From Candidatus Lokiarchaeum ossiferum (GTDB taxonomy: Archaea > Asgardarchaeota > Lokiarchaeia > Sigyniarchaeales > Promethearchaeaceae), in contig CP104013.1 of assembly GCA_025839675.1 (NCBI GenBank), positions 4,860,001 through 4,892,000 on the forward strand: a stretch of 32,000 nucleotides of DNA, in the 5' to 3' direction. The notes below the pieces were generated by a model that was not told the DNA's origin, made no database searches, and saw only the letters and a program-made list of their open reading frames with translations. Shown in pieces: positions 1 through 17,639 of the stretch. Position numbers and translations under genes: made by a program. Numbering within the stretch: the stretch's first letter is position 1; each line of letters starts with the position of its first letter.

Positions 1-1615
1 CGGTAATTTGTCCATTATCTTCTCCATCATTAGTGTCTGCGGCTAAAATCATTGCGGAATTTTGTAAATAACTCCCTCCTGGTGCGACGATATCAGGTTT
101 AGCTACATCGTCTGAATCATACCAAAACTTACCTTGACCATCCAAATTTTCACCTTGACTACTATAATAGGTAATTTGATCTTGATCATTTGTTGCTCCT
201 ACAACAATTGCCTTTTGATTTTTTGCAAGCATATTCATGTTGGAATTGATTCCGTTATTGCCTGCTGCAATAATCACCATTGTACCATTATCAATGACGT
301 TATCTATCAAACTTGATATTTTTTGAGCAAGTAATTCATCCATATCGAAATTTCCAACGCTAAGAACCGTCACAAAAATACGATATTTCGTATTGTTATG
401 CCAGACCCATTCTAAAGCAGAAAGTAAATCTGATGAATATCCTAGCCCAGTCGAATTTAAAACTTTTAATGAAGTTATTTTAGTTTCTGGGGCAATACCA
501 GCGAAATTTGCAAATCCCTTTTCATAATTTTCAGGAGTAAAGGTAATATTAAGTTGGAGATCAAATTGAGGGTTTTTTCCCAGTTCTACTGAATATACAA
601 TGTAGATGTCAAATAAACCCACTTTTTTACTTTCATCAAAAGGTCCAGAAGTATCCCAAGATACGTCTAAAGAATTAGATGCGCTAGTATTAATTAATTG
701 ACCATCTTTATAAAATTTTAAATTATATTTCGAGAGATCGATTATATTACTCATCTTTCCCTTAATTTCAAGGTTATCTAATGCTTCAGAGTCCATTTCA
801 AAGGAAGCTAATTTAAGAGAATAGTCTTGGGGAATAATGTGATGAGGGTAAAAAAGATCAAAATGATTAAACCTACCTCCAACGCTTATATAATATCCAT
901 CCCCGCTGTGATTCATCTCAAAAGATTTATTTGCAGATCCAACTGCAATGGATGCAATGCTAGTTCCATGTCCATTAGAATCAATTGGTTCTGTCTCATT
1001 TTCTTCTGAAAAATCTTTCCAACCAATAATAGATCTAGAGAAGTTTAAGTCTCCAAACCCATTTTCAAATCCAATGAATGCATCATCAATACCAGTATCT
1101 AAAAATGCAATCGAACCATTAGATGTTCCATTAAATATCATATTATCTCCTACTGTTGCAGGATAGATATTCAGCTGGTCATGAACTGTATTCATCTGAG
1201 TTTGGATCATTGAATCTTCTACAACTGTCATATTAGGGGTTTGAGATGTAAATAATTTTAAGTTACCTTCAGAATTATTTATCTGGCCAGCAAAACCAAC
1301 GATATTTTCCCAAGGACCTTCCATCAAAATACCCCCACAATTGGAAAAGTTGCTTAAAATGTCATTCATATTAGATTCCATAGAATCAAACAAAAAGACA
1401 TATCTATGAGATTCATTATCATAAACTGAGTTATCTTCTAAAATACTCTGAGATTGAATTTGTGTTACTGGAGTTATTATCTCTTCACTTAATTCTATAT
1501 TTTTGTTGGTGGAATAATCCAATGCTTCTGTCAAATCAAAAATTGGTGTTGAAAAGAGAATCATTACAAATATTATGATTATATTCATAGGCTTTTTTTT
1601 AGACAATGCTTTCAT
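1..1615 (-). CDS. Subtilisin-like serine protease (peptidase S8), N-terminal part; the 3' end lies beyond the left window edge
   Basis: Absent from the ORF track because it runs off the window. My minus-strand translation from ATG 1615 (alternative in-frame ATG 1588) gives MKALSKKKPMNIIIIFVMILFSTPIF (basic N-terminus plus hydrophobic signal/anchor). It continues with AFLDTGID (catalytic Asp motif), DSNGHGTSIASIA (His motif), GIAPETKITSLKVL and IIAAGNNG (oxyanion Asn). A ~120-aa insert lies between the His motif and GIAPETKITSLKVL. The Ser motif is not reached. The start overlaps the stop of the upstream gene in an ATGA (1612-1615). Confidence 0.85.
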   Translation of the reverse strand, partial: MKALSKKKPMNIIIIFVMILFSTPIFDLTEALDYSTNKNIELSEEIITPVTQIQSQSILEDNSVYDNESHRYVFLFDSMESNMNDILSNFSNCGGILMEGPWENIVGFAGQINNSEGNLKLFTSQTPNMTVVEDSMIQTQMNTVHDQLNIYPATVGDNMIFNGTSNGSIAFLDTGIDDAFIGFENGFGDLNFSRSIIGWKDFSEENETEPIDSNGHGTSIASIAVGSANKSFEMNHSGDGYYISVGGRFNHFDLFYPHHIIPQDYSLKLASFEMDSEALDNLEIKGKMSNIIDLSKYNLKFYKDGQLINTSASNSLDVSWDTSGPFDESKKVGLFDIYIVYSVELGKNPQFDLQLNITFTPENYEKGFANFAGIAPETKITSLKVLNSTGLGYSSDLLSALEWVWHNNTKYRIFVTVLSVGNFDMDELLAQKISSLIDNVIDNGTMVIIAAGNNGINSNMNMLAKNQKAIVVGATNDQDQITYYSSQGENLDGQGKFWYDSDDVAKPDIVAPGGSYLQNSAMILAADTNDGEDNGQIT

Positions 1616-4600
1616 GATCCATTCTCCTCCGTTGTGAGTTCTTCTAAGAATTCTTTTAGATTTTTCTTTTTCCATGCAATATCTCTCAAGGATTGGCCAA
1701 AAAGGAGAGATTCCCTTCTCTCTAATTCTAAATCTTCCCTTGAATATTGTGATTTTTTATAATATGTAAATCCGATTACACTCGCTCCCACAATTATAGG
1801 AAGAATTATAATCAAAATGGATTCAAAATAAGATTGCCTAACCATTATTGTCATAACTGGGCTTTCGATAGTCCTTTTATAAATATAACAATAGTTTAAT
1901 TCTGCAGGGTTGATCTGATAGATTCCATTTTTGTTTAAGGTTCGTAAATGATATGTGAAGGTGATAGAATCACCCGGTTTTAACAATTCATAATTTCTAA
2001 TCATACTTCCATCTTCCAACGTAAATCCTTCTGCACTATAACATCGTGTATCATCGATTGTAAAATTACCCATATCAATATTTCCAGTATTGATTAAGGT
2101 TACAGTAATAGAAATGATATCTCTATGCACTGCATTCACAGTATTTAGATCTTTTGACAGAGATGCATTAAAAACTCCTAAATGGAGCAGATTACTGAAT
2201 GACTGCTTCATAAATTTTGTTTCTATTTTTGAATTTATTGTCAATTGAGGGAGTGTGTATCCTCTATAGTTATCTTTCCGATAACTTAAAGTGATTAATC
2301 GGTCTTCTGATGGGACTAAAGAAGATATCCAGATTAAATCGGTCTCATTTAGAAGTGTAAATCCCGTGATATTAGAGTTAAGAGGTATTTCAATATCTAA
2401 GAATGTTGTGGGTTCCAAATTCTTTATTCTAATTTGAACTTCAAATACATCATTTATTTCTGGCGCATTTTGGTCAAAATTGGAGATATATTCAATGCTT
2501 AGGGCATGTTTATGCGGAGTATCACTCGCTGAAAAGTATCTCACAGGTGCGGAGAGGTATTGGTTATTACTCTGTACTCTTTTTATGGTGGAATTTTCCA
2601 TTCTTTCTTCATCTTGCCAAGTTACTGTTGCACTTGGTAAAATTCTGCTATTAGGAACAATAAAATCGAAGGTAATATTTTCATATGAATCTCCTGCATT
2701 TAGAAAATCAAAATAAATGAACAATTTATCACCTATTAATGTAAAATTTCCTGCTGTTGCAACTAAATAGTAACTTTCATCTGTAAATACTTCGGCAATA
2801 TTGTTAATTTCTTTGATTTTACCTGGTAAATCCAGTTCTAAGCTTATATTTTTTGCAGAAGTCATCCCTACATTTGAGATCGATATATTGTAGGTCATTG
2901 TTTCTCCAATTTTTTTATTATATTCATCCATATGCACGAGGGTATTGAGAGAACTTCTATCATCAGTATTTAAAATAAAACTATTAGAATGACTTAGATA
3001 TTGTGTTCCTAACTCCGAACAATATTGAATAATCGCTTGATCATGAAAGATTTCTTGATTGAGTCTCGTTTGAAAAAGCAGCTGAAAATAATCAATATCT
3101 ACTGTAAATTTTTCAGAATTTTCAAATGTAACACGAAGAATTATCGAATAATTTTGATTTTCTCGGTAAAATTCTGAAAGTTCATAATTAATGCTAGAAA
3201 TTGTGAAGTTAATTTTTTCAGGCTCATTTACAGAATAAATTCCAGGAATTGAGATAAATTCATCCCCTTCCTCCCCAGTATCCTGATCAAAATTATAAAT
3301 CTCCAAAGATAAAGTTGTTGAGTTTAATGAATTTTTAAAATACGCTTCAATACCTAACCCATCCAAGCTATTACTTGAATTAATATCAAAACTACTTTCA
3401 TTTTGGAACATAAAATATGTTTGAATTTGATAGGAAGACCCAATTTTTTGAGATTGAAGATTTAAGGTCGTCGAATCATTTTCTTGATATGTTCCAGAAA
3501 TATAAGTATTATCAATTATCGAACCGTATGAAATGACGGGCGATATCCCTTCTATTGAAGAAATATTTAGTGAATTGAATGATTCAAATTGATCTTCTAA
3601 ATTTCCTGTTGCTGCAGATATAGGAATTGTAAAATTATCTCCAGGCATAATTTTCCAATTAGATGGATTAAAAATACTGTCCGAAGAATTAAAGGATTGA
3701 GGATTGTTTGCAATGGTACCAAATGCCTCTGGATTGTCTTCTAAGATTTCTGCAAATTCTGGAGAATAAGGATAGATCATTTCTAAATTTGTTAGAATAT
3801 TTGTCATTTGAGGGTATGTAATATCATAAGTGCCCGAATTATTTGAATCTATATTGAAAAATCGAGGTTCTTCATTGTGAAAAAGATCAGTTAAATTATA
3901 TCCAAGGGTTTCAGTAGTATGAATAATGGCATCACTATCATAACCCAAAAGCTCAAAGAAATTTTGATTAATATCTAAAAGAGTGATTTCTTTTGTTGGA
4001 TCATTAGTTATACCTAAATTGGAAATATCTCTTTTTTGACCCCAAATTTCATCCAATCCACGATTTTCCACAAATATTTCGATTGATGGTTGTTCATCAT
4101 CAAATAATACATTAGATGCGTTTCCTTCTGCTATTTTTTTTTCAATATATAATGAAGGTTCATTTATAATAGGGCGATAGATACAAACAAATTGATCCAG
4201 TGGGGCGATCGTTGAACCTGGAATTCCGAAATTACTTCCAATTCCGCCTAATAGGCTAAGAAAATTAATCGGATCTGAATCATTTGCCAAGTTTTGGACC
4301 GTTGTTGTCAATCGCGTCAAAGATTCGTTTGTTGACCACTGAATCTTGAAGGAATAATTCTTAAAACTCGATAAATCAAATTCATCATCAAATAAAAATA
4401 GAATACTTTCTATCCGTTGGAGATTATAATCTTCAAAGTCAAAGTAACTCGGTTGAGTGGAAATGATTTCAGATGAGATAAACCCAATGTCAATTAAACT
4501 AAGTGAGATTCCATCCATGGAATTGAAACATTTTGAAGAAATTGCTAAATTTTCTCCTTTATAATTGAGTGCTGTAAATAGATCAAATTTATATTCATGT

Positions 4601-5604
4601 TCCCCCACTTCTGAAAATCCTTCTTTATTGCCTTCGTATTGAACTGAATAAATTACAACGTTATCCAGTTCATCTAAATAGGATATTGTGTTATCGTCTT
4701 CTTCATCTTCTTCCTCAATTTCTTCTTCTTCTGGAGGTAATAATTCATTGGGTGAAATATTATCATTGGATGGCCCTTGGGATGAACCTCCACCATCCAG
4801 TCCAAAATTAAATAGTGATGATGAAGTATCAATTGCTGATAGATCCATATTAATTGGAGTATTATAGGGAGCAATTGCTTCTAATTCATTTTCCAACATC
4901 GAATAATGTTTCAAGAATAGAAGACTTGAGCTGAGATGCTGATTATCTAGATAATTTTGGCTTAGAAGTCGATTATCATCGAAAGCACCCCAGTATCCAT
5001 CTTGAGGGGTATTTGAAATTGTCGTTTCAAAATAATTTTTCCAATTTGGGGTGGCACCGTAAAAAGGATAGAAATATCCTCGTTGAGAATCTTCAATAAC
5101 ATCATGAAACAAGAGATCTACTTCAAATAAATCCTGAAATATATCTAACGCTCGGGTTTTACGGGTCTGAACTAAATCGTAGGTGGATCTATTGTCATAA
5201 TATAAAAAGCCCGTTAAGGATAAATATGAGAGTTCAATGGTCTTCAAATCATTGGTGGTTGCCAATTCCGGATTAAGTACTGGTGAAATTCCATTAGAGA
5301 TAGAAAAATAGAATGAACTCCGGAAAAAAGCTGGATCTGAAAGATCGACTCGTTCAAAAATATTTGTGTCATTTGTGATATAAGATTGACGCACTAAGCT
5401 CTCTTTACCTGCTATATTTACAGCAATTTGTTCCGCAAATAATTCATTACCTGATATATCTGATGTTTTTGGGGATTGATGTCTTTCACTATCCTTTACT
5501 GGAATAATTTGTTCAATATTTTCTGTAATTGCAATAGAACTCAATGGAAATATGCATAAGACCATCAAAAGGATTCTAAGATATTTTAATTTGGTTGATT
5601 TCAC
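1612..5604 (-). CDS. Large (1330 aa) extracellular, C-terminally membrane-anchored, probably heavily N-glycosylated surface protein (S-layer/adhesin-like); function unknown
   Basis: GTG start at 5604, preceded by the SD-like GGAGGGG (minus strand, 5615-5621). Signal peptide MKSTKLKYLRILLMVLCIFPLSSIA. One C-terminal TM helix (ILIIILPIIVGASVIGFTYY) followed by a ~50-aa charged tail. Many N-x-S/T sequons. A G/S/P plus poly-acidic linker (GLDGGGSSQGPS...PPEEEEIEEEDEEDDN). Three CARDB/DUF11-like beta-sandwich signatures near the C-terminus (YNISISNVGMTSAKNISLELDLPG, FEVQIRIKNLEPTTFLDIEIPL, ISITVTLINTGNIDMGNFTIDD). No catalytic motif recognised. Confidence 0.7.
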   Translation of the reverse strand: MKSTKLKYLRILLMVLCIFPLSSIAITENIEQIIPVKDSERHQSPKTSDISGNELFAEQIAVNIAGKESLVRQSYITNDTNIFERVDLSDPAFFRSSFYFSISNGISPVLNPELATTNDLKTIELSYLSLTGFLYYDNRSTYDLVQTRKTRALDIFQDLFEVDLLFHDVIEDSQRGYFYPFYGATPNWKNYFETTISNTPQDGYWGAFDDNRLLSQNYLDNQHLSSSLLFLKHYSMLENELEAIAPYNTPINMDLSAIDTSSSLFNFGLDGGGSSQGPSNDNISPNELLPPEEEEIEEEDEEDDNTISYLDELDNVVIYSVQYEGNKEGFSEVGEHEYKFDLFTALNYKGENLAISSKCFNSMDGISLSLIDIGFISSEIISTQPSYFDFEDYNLQRIESILFLFDDEFDLSSFKNYSFKIQWSTNESLTRLTTTVQNLANDSDPINFLSLLGGIGSNFGIPGSTIAPLDQFVCIYRPIINEPSLYIEKKIAEGNASNVLFDDEQPSIEIFVENRGLDEIWGQKRDISNLGITNDPTKEITLLDINQNFFELLGYDSDAIIHTTETLGYNLTDLFHNEEPRFFNIDSNNSGTYDITYPQMTNILTNLEMIYPYSPEFAEILEDNPEAFGTIANNPQSFNSSDSIFNPSNWKIMPGDNFTIPISAATGNLEDQFESFNSLNISSIEGISPVISYGSIIDNTYISGTYQENDSTTLNLQSQKIGSSYQIQTYFMFQNESSFDINSSNSLDGLGIEAYFKNSLNSTTLSLEIYNFDQDTGEEGDEFISIPGIYSVNEPEKINFTISSINYELSEFYRENQNYSIILRVTFENSEKFTVDIDYFQLLFQTRLNQEIFHDQAIIQYCSELGTQYLSHSNSFILNTDDRSSLNTLVHMDEYNKKIGETMTYNISISNVGMTSAKNISLELDLPGKIKEINNIAEVFTDESYYLVATAGNFTLIGDKLFIYFDFLNAGDSYENITFDFIVPNSRILPSATVTWQDEERMENSTIKRVQSNNQYLSAPVRYFSASDTPHKHALSIEYISNFDQNAPEINDVFEVQIRIKNLEPTTFLDIEIPLNSNITGFTLLNETDLIWISSLVPSEDRLITLSYRKDNYRGYTLPQLTINSKIETKFMKQSFSNLLHLGVFNASLSKDLNTVNAVHRDIISITVTLINTGNIDMGNFTIDDTRCYSAEGFTLEDGSMIRNYELLKPGDSITFTYHLRTLNKNGIYQINPAELNYCYIYKRTIESPVMTIMVRQSYFESILIIILPIIVGASVIGFTYYKKSQYSREDLELERRESLLFGQSLRDIAWKKKNLKEFLEELTTEENGS

Positions 5605-5614
5605 TTTTCATTTT

Positions 5615-5621
5615 CCCCTCC
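5615..5621 (-). promoter_or_regulatory. Shine-Dalgarno-like sequence of the 1330-aa surface protein gene
   Basis: The minus strand reads GGAGGGG 10 nt upstream of GTG 5604, inside the 17-nt spacer after the permease stop. Confidence 0.5.
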
Positions 5622-8486
5622 CTATAATGTTTCCCTAAATATTTCAATTAGGTTTTTATTCCGAAGTTTTCTCATAATTAACTTCAACCCTAAGTAAAGT
5701 GATAATATTGACACCCCGTAAATAATTCCAACAATATCCCATGGTATTTTTATCATTTGGGGTGTCTGTGTAAATAATGTCATGTTTTCAGATAATCCTA
5801 AAGCCATAATTGTTCCAATTATTCCTCCCGAAGTAGAGGATGCCAATAGAATAATCAAGTTTTCTACTAAAAACAAATTTTCTACTTCACGACCATGCAA
5901 ACCTAAGGTTCTTAAAATTCCTATTTCACGAGTTCTCTCTAAAATAGATGAGTAGGCAGAAGTCAAGAGTCCAAAGATAGCAATAATAATTGTTCCTAAT
6001 TGAATTAACAAAAACATATATTTGATTACTAAAAATTCAGACTCGGCGTATTCGATGTCCTCGCTTGTTCTATCAATTCTGAGATTTTCTTCTTCAAAAA
6101 TAGTTTCTAAATTTTGTTCAATTATGGTGTGATTATATCCTTCTTTGACTTTAACAAAAATCTTGTCTACAAATGCATCATCTCCGCCTGGAATATTTAA
6201 ACATTTTATATAATTTATATTGGACATGATAACTCCTCCTGTTCCTCCTCCAAAAAGGCCTGCTTCTCTAATCCGGGATAAACCTGGACAATTTTTAAGA
6301 ACACCTACTACTTTACAAATATATGCGCTTTCTTCTGTTCCTCGAGTGAAGGTTAATCTTGCAAGATCATCTTTTCGGATTTTTAATTGACTTGCAGTTG
6401 ATGAAGATATAATGATGTTAATGATCTCTTGATTTTCCTCAAAAATCTGGCTGAATGCTTCATCTTTGTTTCCAGTGGCAAAAACCAAATGAGACTGCAT
6501 CTCTGTTGAGATTGTATCCTTAAAATTTTTATCTATTCCATAGAGCCATATATTGGTGGATGTAAAATCGATATAATCCCCCATGGTGACTCCAAAATCT
6601 TTATTTTCTTCTGAGTAAATATTTTCAAGATCATTTGTTGATGCTAGTAAGGATGATGCTCTCTCAATACCCTCGACTTGCATTATTTGCTCTTGCAATT
6701 CAACAGTGGGTGCATTAATATTATAAGTGCGGGGGCGAATCACAATATCAGATCCACTTTCATAGGCAATTAAGCCTCCAATTTGATTTACTTGAATTTC
6801 CACCATACTAGTCGCGAACATGATGAAACTGAAACTAAGTATAAACATAATAATTGTGCTTAAATTTCGACGTTGGTGGCGATGAATTGTGATTTTAACA
6901 ATATTCATAATTTTTTGCATCAAAGGTTCGAAAATCATCACCAGCAATTTTAAAAAGAAGGGCATTATTCCAACTGCCATTAAAGATACTCCAACTAAAA
7001 ATGTAACAAGTGTTCCCACTAAGATACTTGCTAATAATGCAATTTTAAGTGACAGCATTATTTTTGGAAGTAAAAAGAATACAAAACCACTGTTGGCAGC
7101 TACAAAGAATCCAAAGACAATCAATTTTACATTTGCACTACCTTCTTTTTTAATTTTATATAATTCATCACTATGACGATAAGGGTTTATGGATTCTACT
7201 ATGCTCATTCGCATTACTTTTACTGCGGGGGCTATTGATACAATTAGACTAACGCCGATACCGATTAAATAACTCATCAAAATGGATGTTGGTTGTGCCA
7301 CAAAAACAATATTTGACGCATAACCGTCAGGTATTTCTCTTTCTAACAATGTAAGCGCGACTTTATCAACAAATATTCCTGCGCCGAATATTCCCAATGT
7401 GGTTCCAATTAAAATTATGAGCATTGCTTGCAAAACAACTAACTTTATGTTGTAACTCTTTCTGGCTCCTAAAACTCGATTGATCCCATATTCTCGTATT
7501 CGCTCTTCAACCGATGTAGATAAAATTCCATTTATTAAAATTCCGCTGATCAACATTGAAACAAATCCAATTACGACAAATAATATATTCATTCCCAATG
7601 AGAACATTTCAGAGACATAAAGTAATTCTAACTTTGGATACTCAATATTCCATGGATCCAATCCGATTAATAATTGCATGTCTGCCCCTAATTTAGTTAT
7701 TAAAGCTTCTGTGTTTTCAATATCTCGAATATCATAAATATCTTCACCATTTTTGAATATCATGACGAGTGAATTTGTTTTATTAACCCAATCCATTTCT
7801 CTATATGCAACATTATAGAGTTGATTTGCTGTCTCACCCCACCAACTCATATCTACGACTATATCACTTTCGCGTCCAAGTGGAAATTTCAAATCGGAAT
7901 TAAATCTGCTTAGAATTGTTAAATTTACAGAAGAATTTAACCCTGGTAAAAAAATATTAAATATTTGTCCTTCAGTTAGATTAAATCTCTCCGCAAATTC
8001 CATTTCCACTAAACAACTATTCACCGGGATACCTTCACTTAAATTAAGGGTTGGGGATATATCTATGAATGAACCGAACGAAATATCCTCTTCAAGCTTT
8101 ACATCAAGCGCCCCAAGTTGAGCCCACCTTTCATCTTCCATCGGATTTGATATTGACCCATTTGTTCGGCCCCACATTGTTGTTCTTGGGAGAAAATGTT
8201 CTATTTCGTCAAATTCCTCATGAATTAAGGCTTTAATATTGGGATAATCAAAATAATCTGATCTATTTTCTTCTTCCCCTGCATAATGTCGAACCGAGAG
8301 TCGTAGGTCTTGGTTTCCGCAATCTGCCGTTAAAAAATCAATAAATCCGTATGAAACAGAATCTGTTATAAAAGAGACGGAGGTAAGCAAGAATAAACTA
8401 ACTGCAATCCCCATTACTCCTAAAATTGTTCGAGTTTTTTGTCTAAATAAATCTTTAAAGGCGTACGAATAGAGAAATGAATCCAT
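5622..8486 (-). CDS. ABC transporter permease, fused double FtsX module (MacB/LolCE/FtsX type VII ABC family) with two large extracytoplasmic domains
   Basis: Two FtsX-type signatures: RIREYGINRVLGARKSYNIKLVVLQAMLIILIGTTLG and RTREIGILRTLGLHGREVENLFLVENLIILLASSTSGGIIG. Each follows a ~250-aa non-hydrophobic segment flanked by TM helices. I prefer ATG 8486 (MDSFLYSYAFKDLFRQKTR..., with GAGGA 7 nt upstream) over the track's TTG 8504. Confidence 0.85.
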   Translation of the reverse strand: MDSFLYSYAFKDLFRQKTRTILGVMGIAVSLFLLTSVSFITDSVSYGFIDFLTADCGNQDLRLSVRHYAGEEENRSDYFDYPNIKALIHEEFDEIEHFLPRTTMWGRTNGSISNPMEDERWAQLGALDVKLEEDISFGSFIDISPTLNLSEGIPVNSCLVEMEFAERFNLTEGQIFNIFLPGLNSSVNLTILSRFNSDLKFPLGRESDIVVDMSWWGETANQLYNVAYREMDWVNKTNSLVMIFKNGEDIYDIRDIENTEALITKLGADMQLLIGLDPWNIEYPKLELLYVSEMFSLGMNILFVVIGFVSMLISGILINGILSTSVEERIREYGINRVLGARKSYNIKLVVLQAMLIILIGTTLGIFGAGIFVDKVALTLLEREIPDGYASNIVFVAQPTSILMSYLIGIGVSLIVSIAPAVKVMRMSIVESINPYRHSDELYKIKKEGSANVKLIVFGFFVAANSGFVFFLLPKIMLSLKIALLASILVGTLVTFLVGVSLMAVGIMPFFLKLLVMIFEPLMQKIMNIVKITIHRHQRRNLSTIIMFILSFSFIMFATSMVEIQVNQIGGLIAYESGSDIVIRPRTYNINAPTVELQEQIMQVEGIERASSLLASTNDLENIYSEENKDFGVTMGDYIDFTSTNIWLYGIDKNFKDTISTEMQSHLVFATGNKDEAFSQIFEENQEIINIIISSSTASQLKIRKDDLARLTFTRGTEESAYICKVVGVLKNCPGLSRIREAGLFGGGTGGVIMSNINYIKCLNIPGGDDAFVDKIFVKVKEGYNHTIIEQNLETIFEEENLRIDRTSEDIEYAESEFLVIKYMFLLIQLGTIIIAIFGLLTSAYSSILERTREIGILRTLGLHGREVENLFLVENLIILLASSTSGGIIGTIMALGLSENMTLFTQTPQMIKIPWDIVGIIYGVSILSLYLGLKLIMRKLRNKNLIEIFRETL

Positions 8487-8500
8487 TTTGCTTTCCTCAA

Positions 8501-9529
8501 TCAATCATCGAGATTTGATCTTTCCTTGGATATGTATAAAACACCGCTGTTGATTTTTCCTTTGATATCTTCCTTCTCAACTAATTCTGCCATTAGATCA
8601 TCAAAATGTAATGGGAGATTGCTGATAATATCTGGATTTATTTGTTCTCTAATTTTAGAGAATCTTATCTCATAATTATGGTCTTTAATAGACTCGCGAA
8701 CTGTTTTTAATATTTCAACTTCACATTTTTCCTTGTATTTTGCTTGTAAATCCAATCTCGCAGAGCGCATTTCTTCTGTCTCTTTTAATCCCGAAACTTC
8801 GAGTCCTTTAACTATTTTCCCATCTCTAATATGGACAATACGCGTGCAATATTCTGAAACTGCTGCATCATGGGTTGCAGCAATAAATGTGGCTCCTTTT
8901 CTATTTAAATCTCTTAATAAGTTAAGAATTTCAATTCCTGTTTTTGAATCTAAATCACCCGTAGGCTCGTCCAGCATAACAATGGACGGATCATTAGCAA
9001 AAGCACGGGCAATGGCAACTCTTTGTTGTTCTCCTCCTGATAACTCGGATGGTGTGTGGTGTGCCCGTTCATCTAACTTTACTAATTTTAAAAGTTCCAT
9101 TGCCTTGCGTTTACGTGCTCTTTTAGATAATGTACCTTGAAAATGTAATGGGATCATAACATTTTCCAATGCGCTCAAAAGGGGTAAGAGATTATAAAAT
9201 TGGAAAACATAACCGATCTTATCTCGTCGTAAATCCGCAAGTTGATTTTCATTCAATCGGCTCATGTCCTGTCCATCAAGATAGATTTTACCCCGAGTGG
9301 GATAATCTAAACCACCAATTAAGTTGAGGAGAGTTGTTTTTCCACATCCGCTAGGTCCCATTAGCCCGGTAAATTCTCCCGGTTTAATTTTTAAATCGAT
9401 TCCTCGAAGTGCAGGAACGGCAGTAGCCCCGAGAAGGTAAGTTTTATGCACTCCTTCTACTAAGATTTTATAAGGCGTATTGATGGTTGAAATATCATCA
9501 GTTTTACTAATTGGTTTTTTGATTACCAT
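8501..9529 (-). CDS. ABC transporter ATP-binding protein (MacB/LolD/FtsE-like) with a ~110-aa C-terminal extension
   Basis: Walker A GPSGCGKTT, ABC signature LSGGEQQRVAIARA, Walker B IVMLDEPTGDLD and H-loop AATHD. It lies directly upstream of the FtsX permease. Residues ~235-342 extend beyond the canonical NBD. Confidence 0.92.
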   Translation of the reverse strand: MVIKKPISKTDDISTINTPYKILVEGVHKTYLLGATAVPALRGIDLKIKPGEFTGLMGPSGCGKTTLLNLIGGLDYPTRGKIYLDGQDMSRLNENQLADLRRDKIGYVFQFYNLLPLLSALENVMIPLHFQGTLSKRARKRKAMELLKLVKLDERAHHTPSELSGGEQQRVAIARAFANDPSIVMLDEPTGDLDSKTGIEILNLLRDLNRKGATFIAATHDAAVSEYCTRIVHIRDGKIVKGLEVSGLKETEEMRSARLDLQAKYKEKCEVEILKTVRESIKDHNYEIRFSKIREQINPDIISNLPLHFDDLMAELVEKEDIKGKINSGVLYISKERSNLDD

Positions 9530-9869
9530 GGAGAGTCATCTTTTTTTTTATCAATGGATCAGATATATAGATTCAATCCTAAATGCATTATTTTATTTAA
9601 GACATCACTAAAAAATGACATTGATCGGTTTTTATTAAATGAAAAAAAGTTGATCTAGTTAAAAAACTTATTTCCTTCATTTTTTAAGAAAAAAAGGGGT
9701 GAATTTGTTATGCTTTTAACTTAAATAAAAAAGATAAATATTTTGCAGAATTATAAAATATTCGTTCTGTCGATAATCTTCTCTAAAATCTCAGAAATCT
9801 TCCGATTGGATTATTTGAGAAAAATTGATAAAAATAAAAATGATTTGGGAAAATTATGTTCTCTTTTCA

Positions 9870-11411
9870 TTAAATAAATTGCAGTACATCTTTTTCAATA
9901 AGTGAGAAACCTTGTGCATCTTCAGCCAAAATTGTTTCTAATAATTTCACCTTCAGTGATTTTATCTGCAATTGGCTTTCCATGCTAAGAGCATTTTCAT
10001 CAACTTGATTAAGTTTACTGTATATTCCTTTTGCCTCATTTAAATCAAAGGGAGTAATGTCTGACGTTATTTTCAAATACTTTGCAACAATGGATTTAAT
10101 GAGATCAACAGCATCAGGAATAAAATCCAAAAATTTCGTGGCATTGCCTGTTTTCATAAAACTCGCTAAATAAGGCTCATAATTCTGCATAAAATCTTCA
10201 AACATTATCGAAAAATCTTCCTTAACAAACTCCATATCCAAATCTGGGTGGGTGAAAATTGTTAAAGTTAGATTTTTTTTCGAGAGTGAAGACATTTTTA
10301 TATTCCCTCCTTGAACTCGAAAGCTAGATAGATCTTGAACATTTATTTCTTCAGCAAATTTAGACATTGCATTCAAAAACATTGGAATTAATTCTAAATC
10401 AAATTGGGGATTATCGGCTTTATTCAATGCGTCTCTCAAAGAACATTTCTTTGTTTCTGCAACAATCAACGTTTTTCCATTAGAATCACTGATCATAATG
10501 CCGTAAATTAATTTTTCTGGTTCAAATTTCTGGTCTTCACTCACTGGGGCTGCTTTTTTGCTAGCCAGATCCTTATTAGAGAGATCCAAGAATGATTTTA
10601 AGACTTGTTCGTAATATACCTCACCTTTTTCTGTTAAATAGACCAGGGTTTGTTTATCCATTTTTTTAGTTCTTAGAAAATTTGCTGTCTCATAAGAGCT
10701 AATTAAGGTTTGTAAAGTTGATTTTGAAGTTTCAAGATTCGATATCAGCCGTTCTAAACTTAAAACTTTTTGAGTTTTCAATGTATTGAAGAGATTAATA
10801 TTTAATTGAATAAGTTTTGTGTCCATTTCACCTTCATTATCAAGTCCCGATTTTCTGAAAACATCTACAAATGCATTGATTGTTGTGTAAAGATGTTCTG
10901 GCTTAATGGAAGTATAATATATGTTTAAATCTGTTTTGTAGTTCTTTTTTATTTCCTTTTTATAAGCTTCAATATGATCTTTAATTTTTAATAATTGAAT
11001 TTCATCAATTAAATCAATTTTATGGATAAGAAAGAAAATATTTGCTTGTTTGGATTGAACTGGTTGTAAAGCAATTGCTTTTCTTATATAATCAACAGTG
11101 ATTTTTGGAGCATGCCTTGAATCCAAGATATTTAAAATTATATCACTATCATTGAAAACATTTTTATCTTCAGAAAACCATCTTTCTTGTTCTTGACCTG
11201 CTAAGTCAAAAACACCTAAGTTTTGTAATAAATTATACGAATAGTTTTCAAATCCATAAGTTGGTTCAATAGGATTTTCTAACAACTTAAATAATGATTC
11301 TCCTTCAAATAACCATTTCCGGATAGTTGATTTTCCAACACCCGAAGGTCCAACAAATACAATTTTTTTTGACAGTATAGATCTCTTCCTTTTAATTGAA
11401 TGTAATAACAA
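9870..11411 (-). CDS. Rag/Gtr-like small GTPase with a central winged-helix-like segment and a C-terminal roadblock/LC7-like domain (513 aa)
   Basis: G1 GPSGVGKS (aa 21-28), G2 region EPTYG, G3 DLAGQE (aa 69-74). G4 is HKID rather than NKxD (aa 130-133, in IFFLIHKIDL). G5 region is YYTSIKPEHLY. HKxD and TSI..E.LY match my recollection of RagA (IFCLVHKMDL, FRTSIWDETLY). Residues ~216-270 (LSLERLISNLETSKSTLQTLISSYETANFLRTKKMDKQTLVYLTEKGEVYY) look like a wHTH. Residues ~300-400 show a beta-alpha-beta-beta-alpha roadblock-like pattern (LIYGIMISDSNGKTLIVAE...LTLTIFTHP). Confidence 0.72.
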   Translation of the reverse strand: MLLHSIKRKRSILSKKIVFVGPSGVGKSTIRKWLFEGESLFKLLENPIEPTYGFENYSYNLLQNLGVFDLAGQEQERWFSEDKNVFNDSDIILNILDSRHAPKITVDYIRKAIALQPVQSKQANIFFLIHKIDLIDEIQLLKIKDHIEAYKKEIKKNYKTDLNIYYTSIKPEHLYTTINAFVDVFRKSGLDNEGEMDTKLIQLNINLFNTLKTQKVLSLERLISNLETSKSTLQTLISSYETANFLRTKKMDKQTLVYLTEKGEVYYEQVLKSFLDLSNKDLASKKAAPVSEDQKFEPEKLIYGIMISDSNGKTLIVAETKKCSLRDALNKADNPQFDLELIPMFLNAMSKFAEEINVQDLSSFRVQGGNIKMSSLSKKNLTLTIFTHPDLDMEFVKEDFSIMFEDFMQNYEPYLASFMKTGNATKFLDFIPDAVDLIKSIVAKYLKITSDITPFDLNEAKGIYSKLNQVDENALSMESQLQIKSLKVKLLETILAEDAQGFSLIEKDVLQFI

Positions 11412-11412
11412 C

Positions 11413-11766
11413 TTATTGATTCTTTTTTTTCAAATCTGTAATTGAACTTTTTAAATCGGATATCCCATCACGATATTTTTGATTTAATCGTTTAAATTCT
11501 TGTTCAAGTTTGATTATCTCATTTAGTAGGGGGTTTTTAATAATTTCTGTTTTATATTTTGATATAACTTTTTTCAATTTATAATTTTGGTCTACATAAA
11601 TGATGGAACAAATTTCTTCGCTTGATAAATCTTTTTTGTGAATGTGAACTACTGGAAATGGTTTTTTTTTAAATTTTGGGTTGTTGGAGTGTAAAATCTT
11701 GTGAGTATGTTCTTTTTTACATAATTCACAAAAATATGTAATATTTATCTCTTTCTCAACAGCCAT
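11413..11766 (-). CDS. Hypothetical small protein: N-terminal Cys/His cluster plus C-terminal coiled coil
   Basis: 117-aa ORF whose stop lies 1 nt from the start of the Rag-like gene (likely co-translated). It contains CELCKKEHTHKILH (C-x2-C-x3-H-x-H-x3-H). The C-terminal heptad-like segment is IIKLEQEFKRLNQKYRDGISDLKSSITDLKKK. No family recognised. Confidence 0.5.
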   Translation of the reverse strand: MAVEKEINITYFCELCKKEHTHKILHSNNPKFKKKPFPVVHIHKKDLSSEEICSIIYVDQNYKLKKVISKYKTEIIKNPLLNEIIKLEQEFKRLNQKYRDGISDLKSSITDLKKKNQ

Positions 11767-11884
11767 TCAAAAACTTCCTATTTTTATACCTTTGTTTGGT
11801 CCTAACTTTGTTTTATTTATTGCTTTTAGAAATCTTTTGAGAAAAATTAGAAAATATTTTGTAAATTAAAAATTAGAGAAAAAA

Positions 11885-14050: not shown

Positions 14051-15520
14051 ATGTCTAATCTTAATTCGAATGAAGTTTCCATTCCACCAGAAATTATTGA
14101 TACTTTTAAAAAAACGGGGTTAGGATATTCTTGGTTGATCAAAGGACAAGCGGGAGTAGGGAAAACAACCTTCGCTCTTAGTCTATTACACTTTTTTAAA
14201 AAATATGAGCCTATATATTTATCCACGCGTGTGGCTCCTGCGAGCATATATGCACAATTTCCTTTTTTGGAAGGCAGATTGCAGGATTTTAACATTTTGG
14301 ATGCAACAAGGACTTATATTCCTCCCGTAAATCAACCTGAGCGTATGAAAGATCATTTGAACAATACTCTTAGGTTTTCATCAGTTCCCGATTTCTTAAA
14401 AATAATATACGAAAAAGTGGCACAATATGAATCCCCCGTTATAGTAATTGATTCTTGGGATGCGATTGTTGGTCAAAGTAATGATGAAAGGAAAAATATT
14501 GAAACCTTATTAACTGAATACATCCGCAACACTAATGCAAAATTGATCTTTATTGCTGAATCTGATAGTATAAGCCTTTTGGATTTTATTGTTGATGGTA
14601 TTCTTACTCTCAAGGATGAATCCGTCGCGGGAAGAACCCTTCGAACAATCGAAATAAATAAAATTCGTGCTGTGGAACGCCGTCAAAAAGCGTATGCATA
14701 TACTTTATTCAATAATCAATTCCAATATATTTCTCTCTTTGAAAAGGATAAACAAATCCCAATAACACCTTTTGAAATAACAACGGATAAAAACGATTTA
14801 TTTTCAACAGGAAATGCACCTTTAGATGAGATTTATAATGGAGGTTTACGTCCAGGAACTTTTAATTTATTAGAAGTAGAATCAACCGTTCCAATATCAT
14901 CAATTTCATCGATCTTCATTGGCATGTTATGTCAATTTATTCAACAAGGAAGAGGTGCTATTGTACACACGACTGATGGGATTAATTCTGATTTAATTGA
15001 CAAGAAACGCCTATTTCTCTATTTACAAACAGATACCATTAGTAGAAACATGCGAATACTACAAACTCAAATCAGCGATAGAAAAGAGATTCGCCCTTAT
15101 ATTCGGTTGGTTGACGATGTTTCATACAATGATATCTTTTTTGATACATATTCGAAATTATCAAGTATTTCCAAATTTCAACCTGTATTTGCTGGAATTT
15201 CTTATGATTCCTTACAGTTTATGGTCGATTTTAATAAAGCAATGCGCGATTTCGAGAATCATTTAAAATTAATTAGGAATTCCAATGTGATTGAATTAGG
15301 TATCATTAATTCTACTTCCCCAGGGCAAGCTAAAGCGTCTCAAGATTTGGGAGCATTAACAACAAATTTATCATATATTGCTTCTACACATATAAAAGTG
15401 ATAGAAAGACACGGCTCCATATTTTTGTATGCGATTAAGCCAAGAAGCTCTTGTCTTTTTGCTATGAAGACAAATTATGATAAAGGGTTTCCTCAGATTG
15501 AATTGTTACCTGTTGTTTAA
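14051..15520 (+). CDS. KaiC/GvpD-like RecA-superfamily ATPase, tandem-domain, with a degenerate second nucleotide-binding domain
   Basis: Domain 1 has IPPEIIDTFKKTGLGYSWLIKGQAGVGKTTFALSLL (Walker A, aa 32-39) and a Walker B-like VIVIDSWD (aa 130-136). Domain 2 starts with the KaiC-type lead-in STGNAPLDEIYNGGLRPGTFNLL. Its P-loop position reads EVESTVPISS, with no GKT. Confidence 0.75.
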   Translation: MSNLNSNEVSIPPEIIDTFKKTGLGYSWLIKGQAGVGKTTFALSLLHFFKKYEPIYLSTRVAPASIYAQFPFLEGRLQDFNILDATRTYIPPVNQPERMKDHLNNTLRFSSVPDFLKIIYEKVAQYESPVIVIDSWDAIVGQSNDERKNIETLLTEYIRNTNAKLIFIAESDSISLLDFIVDGILTLKDESVAGRTLRTIEINKIRAVERRQKAYAYTLFNNQFQYISLFEKDKQIPITPFEITTDKNDLFSTGNAPLDEIYNGGLRPGTFNLLEVESTVPISSISSIFIGMLCQFIQQGRGAIVHTTDGINSDLIDKKRLFLYLQTDTISRNMRILQTQISDRKEIRPYIRLVDDVSYNDIFFDTYSKLSSISKFQPVFAGISYDSLQFMVDFNKAMRDFENHLKLIRNSNVIELGIINSTSPGQAKASQDLGALTTNLSYIASTHIKVIERHGSIFLYAIKPRSSCLFAMKTNYDKGFPQIELLPVV

Positions 15521-15523
15521 GAC

Positions 15524-15530
15524 GAGGTGA
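15524..15530 (+). promoter_or_regulatory. Shine-Dalgarno sequence of the Rab-like GTPase gene
   Basis: GAGGTGA lies 4 nt upstream of ATG 15535, in the 14-nt spacer after the KaiC-like gene. Confidence 0.6.
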
Positions 15531-15534
15531 GAAA

Positions 15535-16035
15535 ATGAATATACAAAGAAAAGTGTGCCTTCTTGGTTCTGATGGTGTTGGAAAAACTTCTATTATTGTC
15601 AGATATACTAAGGGAACTTTTTCAAATTCTTATCTAGTAACTCTAGGCGTTGACTTTTACGAAGTGAAATTTTCCAATCCAAAAACCTCTGATATGCTTT
15701 CAACCCAAATTTGGGATTTGGCATCACAGAAAAATTTTCAATTCATGAGAGCACAGTATCTTTCCTATGCAAATTATATTATTATTGTAGTCGATGCGAT
15801 GAGGCATGCTGATGAATATATTGTCCCATGGATTAACGATGTTCGGAAACATGCTGGTAAAGAAGTTCCTTATATAATAGTTTTAAACAAAGTTGATTTG
15901 ATAGATGCTGAGACATCTAAAAATTTGGTTTTAAGATTGAAAAATCAATTCAATGTTCCTATTTTTAATACTTCCGCTAAAACAGGGGAAAATATTCATG
16001 AAATCTTTGAATATGTCGCTGAATGTCTTTGGTAA
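15535..16035 (+). CDS. Rab/Ras-like small GTPase (166 aa) with a non-canonical switch II (DLASQ)
   Basis: G1 GSDGVGKT, a Rab-like switch I TLGVDF, G3 WDLASQK (canonical is WDTAGQE), G4 NKVD and G5 TSAKTG. The strong SD GAGGTGA (15524-15530) lies 4 nt before the ATG and 14 nt after the KaiC-like stop. Confidence 0.88.
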   Translation: MNIQRKVCLLGSDGVGKTSIIVRYTKGTFSNSYLVTLGVDFYEVKFSNPKTSDMLSTQIWDLASQKNFQFMRAQYLSYANYIIIVVDAMRHADEYIVPWINDVRKHAGKEVPYIIVLNKVDLIDAETSKNLVLRLKNQFNVPIFNTSAKTGENIHEIFEYVAECLW

Positions 16036-16301
16036 CGAATCTTTTTTAAATGCAATATTTTTGTTAAGATATTTCTAATTAAAATTCTTATCAAAAAATC
16101 ACTCTTTTTCTTAAAATTTAAGTATATAATCAATTGGTTCTAAATTCTTTATGAAAGTGGTTTAAAGGAAAAATGGTAGACTGTTGATTATCATTTTTAA
16201 TCATCTATTTAAATTGAAATTTAAAGTCTCCCTTCAATATTTAAAAACCCATCCTTAAATAATAGTTCATCTCCAAAAAAAATAATTTGTATCAGGATAG
16301 A

Positions 16302-17639
16302 ATGGAAATGGTAATTGGATTAGTATTAACTCATTGGGACACCCAGTTAGGTCCTTTAATAATGGCAAGATATCCAAATAATTTTCAAGTATCTAAAGAT
16401 GAAATCAACAAAATATTAATGACACATTCAATTTCTAAAGAGATGACAAATGAAATAGTCGAAATTCGTTTGAAAGAAAAAATTTTTCTCAGTTATTGTC
16501 CAAAAAAGCAAATTCCAGTCAATGGATATTCTATGATGATTATTGTTCTCCATTTAAATGAAGAATTATTGTTTGATGGAATAAAAAATCAATTAAATGA
16601 AATTGGTGAAAATTTATTCAATCGTTCTGGTAATGAGCAAATTAAAGAATTTCACCAGTATGCATCCAAATTTTTTCAAAAAAAATCATCACGAAAAATA
16701 TTATTTATAGGATCTAGCGCAGTAGGTAAAACTTCAATTAAAAAACTATTTTTTGAGGGAATACCTTCTGAATCTCTTTTGGATTTGCCCCTTGAACCAA
16801 CTTATGGATTAGTACAATTTAATTATGATTGGCTAGATTTGGATCTTGGTGTTGCAGATCTGGCAGGTCAGGAAATGGACCATTTTTTAAACGAATCATT
16901 CGAATCGGAGATTGATCCATTTGATTCTGTTGATGCAATTCTCTACATCTTCGATTCAACTTATTGGGATACAAATTCTCGTGAAATCGTACAACATATA
17001 CAGAAGATTCTAGACATAAATACAAGTAGAGATCTAAAATCCCAGTTTTTTGTTTTTTGTCACAAACTGGATTTAATTCCAACTTATGATCAACAATCCT
17101 TCAAGAATGAAATAAAATATACCTTGCCAGCATCGGTTCAGTCTAATCTCTTTTTTACAAGCATTAAATCTGACATGCTCCATCAACTAATTAGATCAAT
17201 GCAAGTAGTAATTGGTACCCTCTCACCACAAACCAATTATCTCGAAGAAATATTATTTGAGACTATTTCAGAAAAAAGGAATACTGCAGTAATTATTTTA
17301 AATGAAAAAAGAATTTTACTAAGTGCTTCGACTGAAGATTTTAAAATAATTAACTATTCTCACATCTTTTCATTCATTTCATCAATGAATTTGCTTCTCG
17401 ATGATTTCAAAAGTGAATTCACTCAATTACAACTTAAAGGAAACCGTTTTAATTTGCATTTTTCCTCGATAGAATGGTTGTCAGAGGGTGAATGTATCAT
17501 TTTAATTAGTGAATGCTTATCTTTTAAGGAATTAAGTCTACTAAAAGAGAGTATTCAATATAGTTTAATATATTTAGAAACTTCCTACGAAAAATCTTCA
17601 GATAATCTAAACATAGATCAAAAAAATTCATCCAAATAA
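16302..17639 (+). CDS. Three-domain protein: folliculin-like longin domain, Rag/Gtr-like GTPase and a Rag-CTD-like roadblock domain
   Basis: The track starts at TTG 16287. I prefer ATG 16302 (MEMVIGLVLTHWDTQLGP), by analogy with the N-terminus of the 163-aa paralogous domain at 30544. GTPase motifs: G1 GSSAVGKT (16710-16733), EPTYG, DLAGQE (16857-), HKLD (17061-17072, in FVFCHKLDLI) and FFTSIKSDMLH. The C-terminal ~115 aa alternate helix and strand in the same order as the RagA C-terminal roadblock domain (LEEILFETISEKRNTAVIILNEKRILLSAS...FTQLQLKGNRFNLHFSSI...ECIILISEC...). Confidence 0.72.
   Translation: MEMVIGLVLTHWDTQLGPLIMARYPNNFQVSKDEINKILMTHSISKEMTNEIVEIRLKEKIFLSYCPKKQIPVNGYSMMIIVLHLNEELLFDGIKNQLNEIGENLFNRSGNEQIKEFHQYASKFFQKKSSRKILFIGSSAVGKTSIKKLFFEGIPSESLLDLPLEPTYGLVQFNYDWLDLDLGVADLAGQEMDHFLNESFESEIDPFDSVDAILYIFDSTYWDTNSREIVQHIQKILDINTSRDLKSQFFVFCHKLDLIPTYDQQSFKNEIKYTLPASVQSNLFFTSIKSDMLHQLIRSMQVVIGTLSPQTNYLEEILFETISEKRNTAVIILNEKRILLSASTEDFKIINYSHIFSFISSMNLLLDDFKSEFTQLQLKGNRFNLHFSSIEWLSEGECIILISECLSFKELSLLKESIQYSLIYLETSYEKSSDNLNIDQKNSSK

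Follow-up and report, generated by a model that had tools for sequence, protein, structure and literature searches.

In eukaryotes, nutrient sensing centres on the Rag GTPases. Many Rag-like genes also occur in Asgard archaea, the functions and partners of which are, to our knowledge, unknown. Here we describe a 513-amino-acid (aa) Rag/Gtr-type GTPase encoded in a 32,000-nucleotide (nt) stretch of Candidatus Lokiarchaeum ossiferum (GenBank assembly GCA_025839675.1, contig CP104013.1, positions 4,860,001 to 4,892,000 of the forward strand; hereafter, the window), in which a winged helix lies between the GTPase (G) domain and a domain of the longin/roadblock superfamily. Against the background of Asgard Rag-like genes this family is an exception, having a defined extra domain, a tightly coupled Rag partner (at ~28 loci) and two reproducible genomic contexts. 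The family is present in L. ossiferum as well as in P. syntrophicum, the two Asgard species in culture, and would thus provide concrete protein pairs for biochemistry.

The closest described systems are the eukaryotic Rag/Gtr GTPases (RagA-D, Gtr1/Gtr2; PF04670) and the Asgard Rag-like GTPases. With the former, the 513-aa protein shares the HKxD and TSI motifs, a C-terminal alpha/beta domain of the roadblock/longin superfamily, the lack of a lipid-anchor motif and a full-length structural alignment. In contrast to them, it contains an additional winged helix of ~80 aa, a linker and a helical C-terminal extension of ~115 aa, and it is found not in a TORC1/Ragulator context but next to an ABC transporter (paralogue group A) or two-component kinases (paralogue group B). 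That Asgard Rag-like GTPases are fused to roadblock or longin domains is already known. Tran et al. 2024 (PMC10933270) reported the architectures G-R, L-G, L-G-R and G with '?' domains of unknown function; the terms 'winged' and 'HTH' are absent from the text of that paper and from one supplementary text file. Two Lokiarchaeota proteins of this kind have been solved, LokiRagO (8yl2) and LokiRagM (8zla). They come from the same phylum and likewise join a Rag-like G domain to a roadblock/longin domain, but are only ~290-320 aa long and lack the winged-helix insert. In the literature searched, which did not extend to the paper behind 8yl2 and 8zla, we found no description of the combined G, winged-helix, longin/roadblock and helical architecture, and the two conserved genomic contexts and the coupled partner appear to be likewise undescribed there.

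A third point of comparison is provided by the actinobacterial conservons, which comprise a histidine kinase, a roadblock GTPase-activating protein (GAP), a DUF742 protein and a small GTPase (PMC4316618, PMC13621833). In Mycobacterium smegmatis, the DUF742 helix-turn-helix protein MfpC was shown experimentally to be the guanine nucleotide exchange factor (GEF) for a roadblock-regulated small GTPase (PMC11343762). The conservons (CvnA-D; MfpB/C/D) and our system resemble each other in their parts list, namely a GTPase, a roadblock fold, a helix-turn-helix fold and, in group B, kinases and a response regulator, a likeness of component parts. The 513-aa protein differs in fusing three modules into one chain, its GTPase is of the Rag and not the MglA type, and its own locus contains no kinase. 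A complete conservon, in which an MglA-type GTPase is encoded together with a histidine kinase, a roadblock protein and a DUF742 protein, was thus not found; kinases flank the group B genes only.

A Rag-type GTPase with an inserted winged helix

Pfam, PDB profile searches, two AlphaFold models and Foldseek agree that the 513-aa protein, which is 100% identical to a Ca. Lokiarchaeum ossiferum protein named 'ADP-ribosylation factor-like protein', is a Rag/Gtr-type GTPase with a MarR-like winged helix placed ahead of a longin/roadblock-type domain. The Pfam profile Gtr1_RagA matches residues 16-177 above its curated threshold (E 5e-14; 52.6 bits, cutoff 22), and the Arf, Roc and Ras profiles score far below it. 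The top sequence matches in the PDB are human RagA and yeast Gtr1 (E 5e-8 to 4e-7). Conservation was read from an alignment of 39 full-length homologues, in which the P-loop, the switch I threonine, DLAGQE, HKxD and TSI are invariant or almost so. Fully invariant columns comprise G21, G26, K27, T51, D69, G72, Q73, H130, K131, D133 and T167, while S168 and I169 are almost invariant. Since HKID and TSIK align with HKMD and TSIW of RagA, HKxD and TSI represent G4 (in place of NKxD) and G5 in their Rag form; the protein thus combines Rag nucleotide motifs with an intact P-loop and DxxGQ, as in PF04670. Using Foldseek with the full-length model, we obtained full-length Gtr1, RagA and RagC as best matches (E 1.6e-13 downward). 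With a span of 390-414 columns, these alignments extend over the C-terminal domain as well as the G domain. The two Lokiarchaeota Rag-like crystal structures 8yl2 and 8zla were also matched.

The central segment folds as a winged helix. In the full-length AlphaFold2 model, generated from the 39-sequence alignment (mean predicted local distance difference test (pLDDT) score 82), this segment consists of helix 198-214, strand 216-218, helices 219-226 and 230-242, strands 246-251 and 254-259, and helix 261-273, all at pLDDT >90. This is the canonical winged-helix order (H-S-H-H-S-S-H), and a second model restricted to residues 196-513 gave the same result. A single-sequence PDB search already matched the MarR protein 3bja (E 7e-4, residues 189-279). 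A segment profile built from 29 homologues matched 150 PDB sequences at E ≤1, mostly winged helices of the MarR, ArsR and Z-alpha types, the best being the MarR family members 1s3j (1.5e-6) and 3bja (4.6e-6). Pfam returned winged-helix families below threshold, HTH_34 in 12 of the 29 members and HTH_45 in 8, with TrmB, MarR and TFIIE among the others. Foldseek of the segment model retrieved AF1382 (TM-score 0.72, root mean square deviation 2.7 Å), BpsR, NadR, MarR and Sso10a. The inserted winged helix is real and conserved as a domain. Compared with MarR-family transcription factors, its core is detectably homologous, has the same topology and retains the L-T-x-x-G motif after the wing. Unlike in those proteins, only this core aligns, the MarR dimerisation helices falling outside the profile match; the D-x-R of the wing is missing, the recognition helix is not conserved and the domain sits in the middle of a GTPase.

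In a canonical Rag of ~300 aa, the G domain is joined directly to the C-terminal domain. Here, the ~80-aa winged helix and a 25-aa linker, poorly conserved (identity 0.18 within group A), come between the two. In the AlphaFold model, the alpha/beta unit that follows (residues 302-387) has the order strand-strand-helix-strand-strand-strand and is succeeded by long helices. It holds the most conserved family-specific motif, ELIPMF..A..KF..EIN. The segment model matched both longin folds (AP2 sigma at 8.9e-4, zeta-COP and Mon1-Ccz1) and roadblock folds (LAMTOR, MP1/p14 and the MK-D1 roadblock structures 7yh1 and 9jq8, at ~8e-3). Because the best matches are split in this way, with a strand and helix order that looks longin-like, we use the superfamily-level label longin/roadblock. 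The C-terminal ~115 residues are helical and had no match in Pfam; the first two of these helices probably pack on the alpha/beta domain, judging from the models.

These results bear on an earlier note on the window, made from the DNA letters and their translations. It had described two open reading frames (ORFs), for proteins of 513 and 117 aa, and both are present at the positions given. It had also read the 513-aa protein as a second Rag-like GTPase sharing motifs with the gene for a 450-aa protein elsewhere in the window, which is borne out by the RagA/Gtr1 matches above and by BLASTP (34% identity over 177 aa, E 1e-24), with VGKS/T..K..FEG, EPTYG, DLAGQE, HK[IL]DLI and TSIK aligned between the two. 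The 450-aa protein itself matches Gtr1_RagA (E 1.5e-18) and, over residues 136-433, the structure of Gtr1. The winged helix-turn-helix that the note had placed at residues ~216-270, between the GTPase and a roadblock-like domain, is a true winged helix in that position and extends over residues ~196-274; structure prediction, as the note had proposed, and the Foldseek search found helix-turn-helix geometry and MarR-type folds. Finally, the suggested roadblock-like domain and extra C-terminal domain correspond to the alpha/beta domain (residues ~300-396) and the helices at 397-513.

Family distribution and two genomic contexts

All 56 full-length homologues identified (486-526 aa) belong to Lokiarchaeia/Promethearchaeota, and P. 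syntrophicum MK-D1 carries two paralogues (50% and 30% identity). When the non-GTPase part (residues 196-513) was searched against 1.84 billion representatives, only 88 clusters at 50% identity were matched; most contain proteins of ~500 aa aligned at positions ~185-500, with the same layout. A genome scan returned 49 loci, nearly all from Promethearchaeota, the exceptions being two outliers on short or possibly mis-binned contigs. These outliers are L027, on 3.6 kb of a metagenome-assembled genome (MAG) labelled Odinarchaeota, and L044, in a MAG labelled Patescibacteria. Their neighbours (histidine kinases, a response regulator and Rag-like genes) look Lokiarchaeial, so mis-binning is likely.

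The homologues form two groups, group A with at least 34% identity to the window protein, which it includes, and group B with ~30%. Mean pairwise identity within A, within B and between the groups is 0.56, 0.52 and 0.40 for the G domain, 0.58, 0.49 and 0.36 for the alpha/beta domain, and 0.36, 0.29 and 0.19 for the winged helix, which is the folded part with the lowest conservation.

In group A, the GTPase gene is followed in the window and in 13 of 13 other fetched loci by genes for an ABC ATPase, an FtsX permease and a ~1,300-aa protein. These 14 loci represent about a dozen genomes, down to 34% identity, and the downstream trio is kept even where the upstream genes differ completely. The spacers between the GTPase and ABC genes measure 90-341 nt and, in the window, oligo-T runs resembling archaeal terminators lie ~30 nt past the GTPase stop codon; separate transcription of the ABC operon is therefore likely. 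Upstream, the Lokiarchaeum and Harpocratesius relatives share a conserved block of a CoA-ligase-like gene, a KaiC/GvpD-like ATPase, a Rab-like GTPase and the 450-aa Rag-like gene. The latter, a longin-G-roadblock paralogue, is found in this block ~5 kb away in the window and in 7 other fetched loci, among them L002 and L010 (both Harpocratesius), L007, L008, L009 and L015.

Group B paralogues have no ABC neighbour. Their cassette is ordered as a response regulator (opposite strand), a ~430-aa longin-G-roadblock Rag paralogue, the gene for the GTPase with the winged helix, and two histidine kinases (opposite strand). The longin-G-roadblock gene lies upstream and is separated from the second Rag gene by -8 to +38 nt at 28 of the 29 loci. 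On the basis of this tight pair, together with the nearby 450-aa paralogue in group A, we infer a two-GTPase unit similar to RagA/RagC, in which gene context makes the 450-aa paralogue the best candidate dimer partner of the 513-aa protein, better than the 117-aa protein. For two Rag-like GTPases of an MK-D1 operon, Tran et al. 2024 (PMC10933270) predicted heterodimerisation through the roadblock domains; they also remarked that gene order is seldom of use in matching Asgard GTPases to their regulators. According to Liu et al. (bioRxiv 10.1101/2020.10.19.343400), Asgard longin-type regulators are frequently connected to two-component systems.

Role of the winged helix and alternative explanations

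We favour, at roughly even odds (about 0.5), an explanation in which the 513-aa protein is a Lokiarchaeia Rag-like switch that forms half of a RagA/RagC-like pair and uses its winged helix as a protein-level regulatory module. A MarR-derived winged helix would have been inserted between the G domain and the longin/roadblock-type dimerisation domain of a Rag switch specific to Lokiarchaeia. Dimerisation would proceed via the alpha/beta domain, most likely with the 450-aa longin-G-roadblock paralogue. The winged helix would most likely be a regulatory or adaptor module acting at the protein level, not a conserved sequence-specific DNA binder; by analogy with the MfpC/CvnC exchange factor of actinobacterial conservons, it could relay or control the nucleotide state. 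In group A, the output is probably tied to the adjacent operon for the MacB-type ABC transporter and giant surface protein, whereas group B would be wired to two-component kinases. The protein-level role is favoured because of the tight Rag pair, a kinase context that recalls conservons, and the precedent of MfpC as a GEF.

Several observations weigh against this explanation. P. syntrophicum and the deep group A clade have no longin-G-roadblock gene in the fetched flanks (6-10 kb), and between the alpha/beta domain of the 513-aa protein and the roadblock domain of the 450-aa protein there is no detectable sequence similarity. The adjacency of the GTPase and ABC genes could reflect local regulation or mere inherited gene order. 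Prokaryotic winged helices of the MarR-like kind are mostly DNA binders, and that of the window protein is basic in the wing (RTKKMDK) and carries a net charge of +3. Domain identities, family distribution and gene neighbourhoods are thus shown here, but the dimer partner, the role of the winged helix and the link to the transporter are inferred.

A first alternative is a GTP-switched transcription factor. The roadblock domain would bring two winged helices together on an operator, with DNA binding gated by the G domain, for local control of the ABC operon in the manner of MarR-type repressors encoded beside efflux pumps. We consider this doubtful. The domain is MarR-like by profile and fold, retains L-T-x-x-G after a wing that is basic in the window, and its gene always lies directly upstream of the same ABC operon. 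In addition, a palindrome noticed by hand, TTCTA-N6-TAGAA (≤1 mismatch), precedes the ABC gene by 56-112 nt in 8 of 12 group A loci from 5 clades: L013 (~57 nt upstream of the ABC start at 11064), L014, L011, L009, L007, L010, L002 and L015. Examples are TTCTAATTATTTAGAA in MK-D1 and TTCTAATTATATAGAA in L009. A looser pattern (exact TTCTA and TAGAA separated by 0-8 nt) occurs at 2.7 per kb in the spacers compared with 0.05 per kb across all fetched loci, a ~50-fold difference. However, the palindrome is absent from the spacers that flank the two genes in the window (9530-9869 and 11767-11884), in which we found no conserved operator, and from L008, L003 and L012. Its occurrence also does not follow the recognition helix: the helices of the window protein and L007 are near-identical but only L007 has the palindrome, while L015 and Harpocratesius have different helices and both have it. 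Thus, the palindrome cannot be assigned to the 513-aa protein; it is likely an operator or promoter element that was lost in L. ossiferum and its closest relative. An unbiased 9-mer search of 12 orthologous GTPase-to-ABC spacers performed no better than on shuffled sequence, owing to AT richness. The protein family, too, argues against a DNA-binding role. Averaged over the 39 homologues, the domain has a net charge of -0.1, with helix 3 at -0.6 and the wing at -0.4. Both of these elements vary among orthologues with the same downstream operon, so that the conserved basic or polar recognition helix and D-x-R wing of MarR-type regulators are not seen; the wing arginine is lost, and orthologue wings include VEEETL (MK-D1), IDNSTN and YGSDQV, some wings being acidic or devoid of basic residues. 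Of all folded domains, the winged helix is the least conserved; it lacks the MarR dimerisation helices and is also present in group B, which has no ABC neighbour. The direct link from nucleotide state to DNA put forward in the earlier note is therefore unsupported: of the properties that it had named as decisive, helix-turn-helix geometry is present, but a conserved basic surface is not, and the 117-aa neighbour is kept in three close relatives only. We regard as unlikely both of two broader possibilities, namely that the winged helix binds nucleic acid, so that the state of the Rag dimer acts on transcription of the transporter operon, or that the protein is a self-contained, fused G-protein system. 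If the first were true, the family would represent a one-protein precursor of Rag-dependent nutrient signalling in the closest archaeal relatives of eukaryotes. The second would place a GTPase, a helix-turn-helix GEF and a roadblock GAP or dimeriser in one chain wired to two-component kinases, and would tie bacterial conservons to eukaryotic Rag-Ragulator logic.

Two further explanations concern the partner and the GTPase class. The earlier note had singled out the 117-aa protein with its Cys/His residues and coiled coil as an obvious, translationally coupled partner candidate; as an obligatory partner, for example a zinc-binding adaptor, we find it improbable. Its gene lies on the same strand, 1 nt (or ~35 nt, see below) upstream of the GTPase gene. 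An AGGAAG box of its own stands 8 nt ahead of the ATG, and the gene is real, as three related genomes retain homologues immediately before the GTPase gene (L008, 76% identity; L009, 38-40%; L007, 35%). Nevertheless, a profile search of 5.8 billion proteins with this family returned four proteins only, and the gene is missing from the orthologous loci of Harpocratesius, where no ORF occupies its upstream position, of Promethearchaeum, where MK-D1 has an unrelated 175-aa longin-like gene upstream of the GTPase orthologue, and of a deeper Lokiarchaeial clade, where a HicAB pair lies on the other strand in its place. The CxxC-x3-HxH cluster reported for the 117-aa protein does exist in the window, but among the four homologues C13 and H43 are the only invariant Cys/His residues (alongside PFP36-38, E51, I52, Y57 and coiled-coil positions). 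C16, H20, H22 and H41 vary, so a conserved four-ligand zinc site is unlikely. The protein had no significant match in Pfam, NCBIfam or the PDB. We conclude that it is probably the product of a young accessory gene, restricted to close relatives of Lokiarchaeum and probably co-transcribed with the GTPase gene. A Roco-like protein, in which the G domain, winged helix and alpha/beta domain would be equivalents of Roc, COR-A and COR-B in a dimerisation-activated GTPase and the likeness to Rag would be secondary, is very improbable. COR-A holds a winged-helix-like subdomain and COR-B is a dimerisation device; LRRK2 (8tzf_A) gives the longest full-length Foldseek alignment (464 columns, E 5e-7) and Pfam Roc weakly matches the G domain (E 1e-4). 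Yet Roc scores 22.9 bits, under its cutoff of 27, compared with a Gtr1_RagA score well above threshold, LRRK2 ranks only 33rd behind top structural and sequence matches that are all Rag/Gtr, the segment model retrieves longin/roadblock folds and no COR, and the HKxD and TSI motifs are of the Rag type. Roc-COR identity was accordingly set aside.

Start codon, feature coordinates and neighbouring genes

The 1-nt gap that the earlier note took as translational coupling holds literally for the annotated TTG at 11411, but that start is doubtful. All homologues begin at M-(S/A/V)-K-K, equivalent to codon 13 of the 513-aa ORF, and residues 1-11 have a pLDDT of 35. In L008 (88% identity), the reading frame is shifted by one base, and none of the codons ATG, GTG and TTG occurs between the stop of the small gene and the conserved CTG. 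Running the ORF up to the first TTG has therefore probably produced the 1-nt spacing artificially. The two genes are more likely ~35 nt apart, a distance that would still allow co-transcription, and the relatives L007 and L009 have gaps of 29 and 54 nt, respectively, in disagreement with strict coupling. An AGGAAG box resembling a Shine-Dalgarno sequence lies 6-9 nt before the ATA-CTG; in L007, GAGGAAG precedes an ATG. In both L. ossiferum (11373-11411, minus strand) and L008 (7719-7760), the CTG follows ATA downstream of a AAAAGGAAGAGA box, while other homologues have ATG or TTG. Initiation in these two genomes may thus be non-canonical. The gene caller shortened the L008 GTPase protein to 418 aa.

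Table 1 Coordinates of the GTPase gene, its domains and surrounding features in the window
Feature	Coordinates	Strand	Basis
Rag/Gtr-type GTPase ORF, 513 aa (G domain, winged helix, longin/roadblock domain, helical C-terminus)	9870-11411	minus	TTG start as in NCBI annotation
G domain, residues 14-188	10848-11372	minus	P-loop GPSGVGKST, switch I T51, DLAGQE, G4 HKID, G5 TSIK
MarR-like winged-helix domain, residues 196-274, between G and alpha/beta domains	10590-10826	minus	AlphaFold2, profile, Foldseek
Linker, poorly conserved and of low confidence, residues 275-299	10515-10589	minus	pLDDT <50 at residues 278-295
Longin/roadblock-superfamily alpha/beta domain, residues 300-396	10224-10514	minus	Foldseek, conservation
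Helical C-terminal region, residues 397-513, five helices	9873-10223	minus	AlphaFold models
Probable true start region: AGGAAG 11385-11390, ATA 11376-11378, CTG 11373-11375	11373-11390	minus	Homologue starts
Small lineage-specific protein ORF, 117 aa (Cys/His-containing N-terminal part, coiled-coil-like C-terminal helix)	11413-11766	minus	ATG start
Oligo-T runs, putative terminator	9817-9840	minus	Sequence
Conserved downstream block (ABC ATPase, FtsX permease, 1330-aa protein)	1612-9529	minus	Pfam, NCBIfam
LolD/MacB-type ABC ATPase with C-terminal extension (orthologues 332-343 aa)	8501-9529	minus	Pfam, NCBIfam
Duplicated (fused double) FtsX permease, 960 aa (orthologues ~950 aa)	5622-8504	minus	Pfam, NCBIfam
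TRAP_beta/DUF11/CARDB-like surface-type protein, 1330 aa (orthologues ~1300 aa)	1612-5604	minus	Pfam, NCBIfam
Rag-like paralogue, 450 aa (longin-like N-terminal region, G domain, roadblock C-terminal domain)	16287-17639	plus	Pfam, structure match

The window has a GC content of ~30% and, according to the ORF list and Pfam, encodes TBP, one Rab/Ras-like GTPase and two Rag-like GTPases. An Rfam scan of the whole window returned no RNA family, and the strand opposite the ORF interval contains no ORF of ≥60 aa.

Across Lokiarchaeia, the ABC ATPase, double FtsX permease and giant protein constitute a conserved MacB-like export or mechanotransmission module. The C-terminal ~100 aa of the ATPase (8501-8830, minus strand) are conserved in all orthologues and weakly match DUF7347 (E 0.002-0.005). 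This extension had no match in the PDB and may be a docking or regulatory domain.

In the upstream block, the KaiC/GvpD-like P-loop ATPase (489 aa) and the Rab/Ras-like GTPase (166 aa) are separated by 14 nt (14051-16035, plus strand), and this pair adjoins the gene of the 450-aa type in L002, L007-L010 and L015. The 175-aa gene of MK-D1 (L001, 5130-5657) has an IGL...H....LGP motif in common with the N-terminus of the 450-aa protein (BLASTP E 5e-5, 18 aa), and its product may be a stand-alone longin-like domain. One-mismatch matches to the TTCTA-N6-TAGAA palindrome number 4 in the window against 2.7 expected, which is not above chance. One of them, TTGTATCAGGATAGAA (16287-16302, plus strand), coincides with the annotated TTG start of the 450-aa ORF; homologues of the 450-aa protein align only from residue 7-8.

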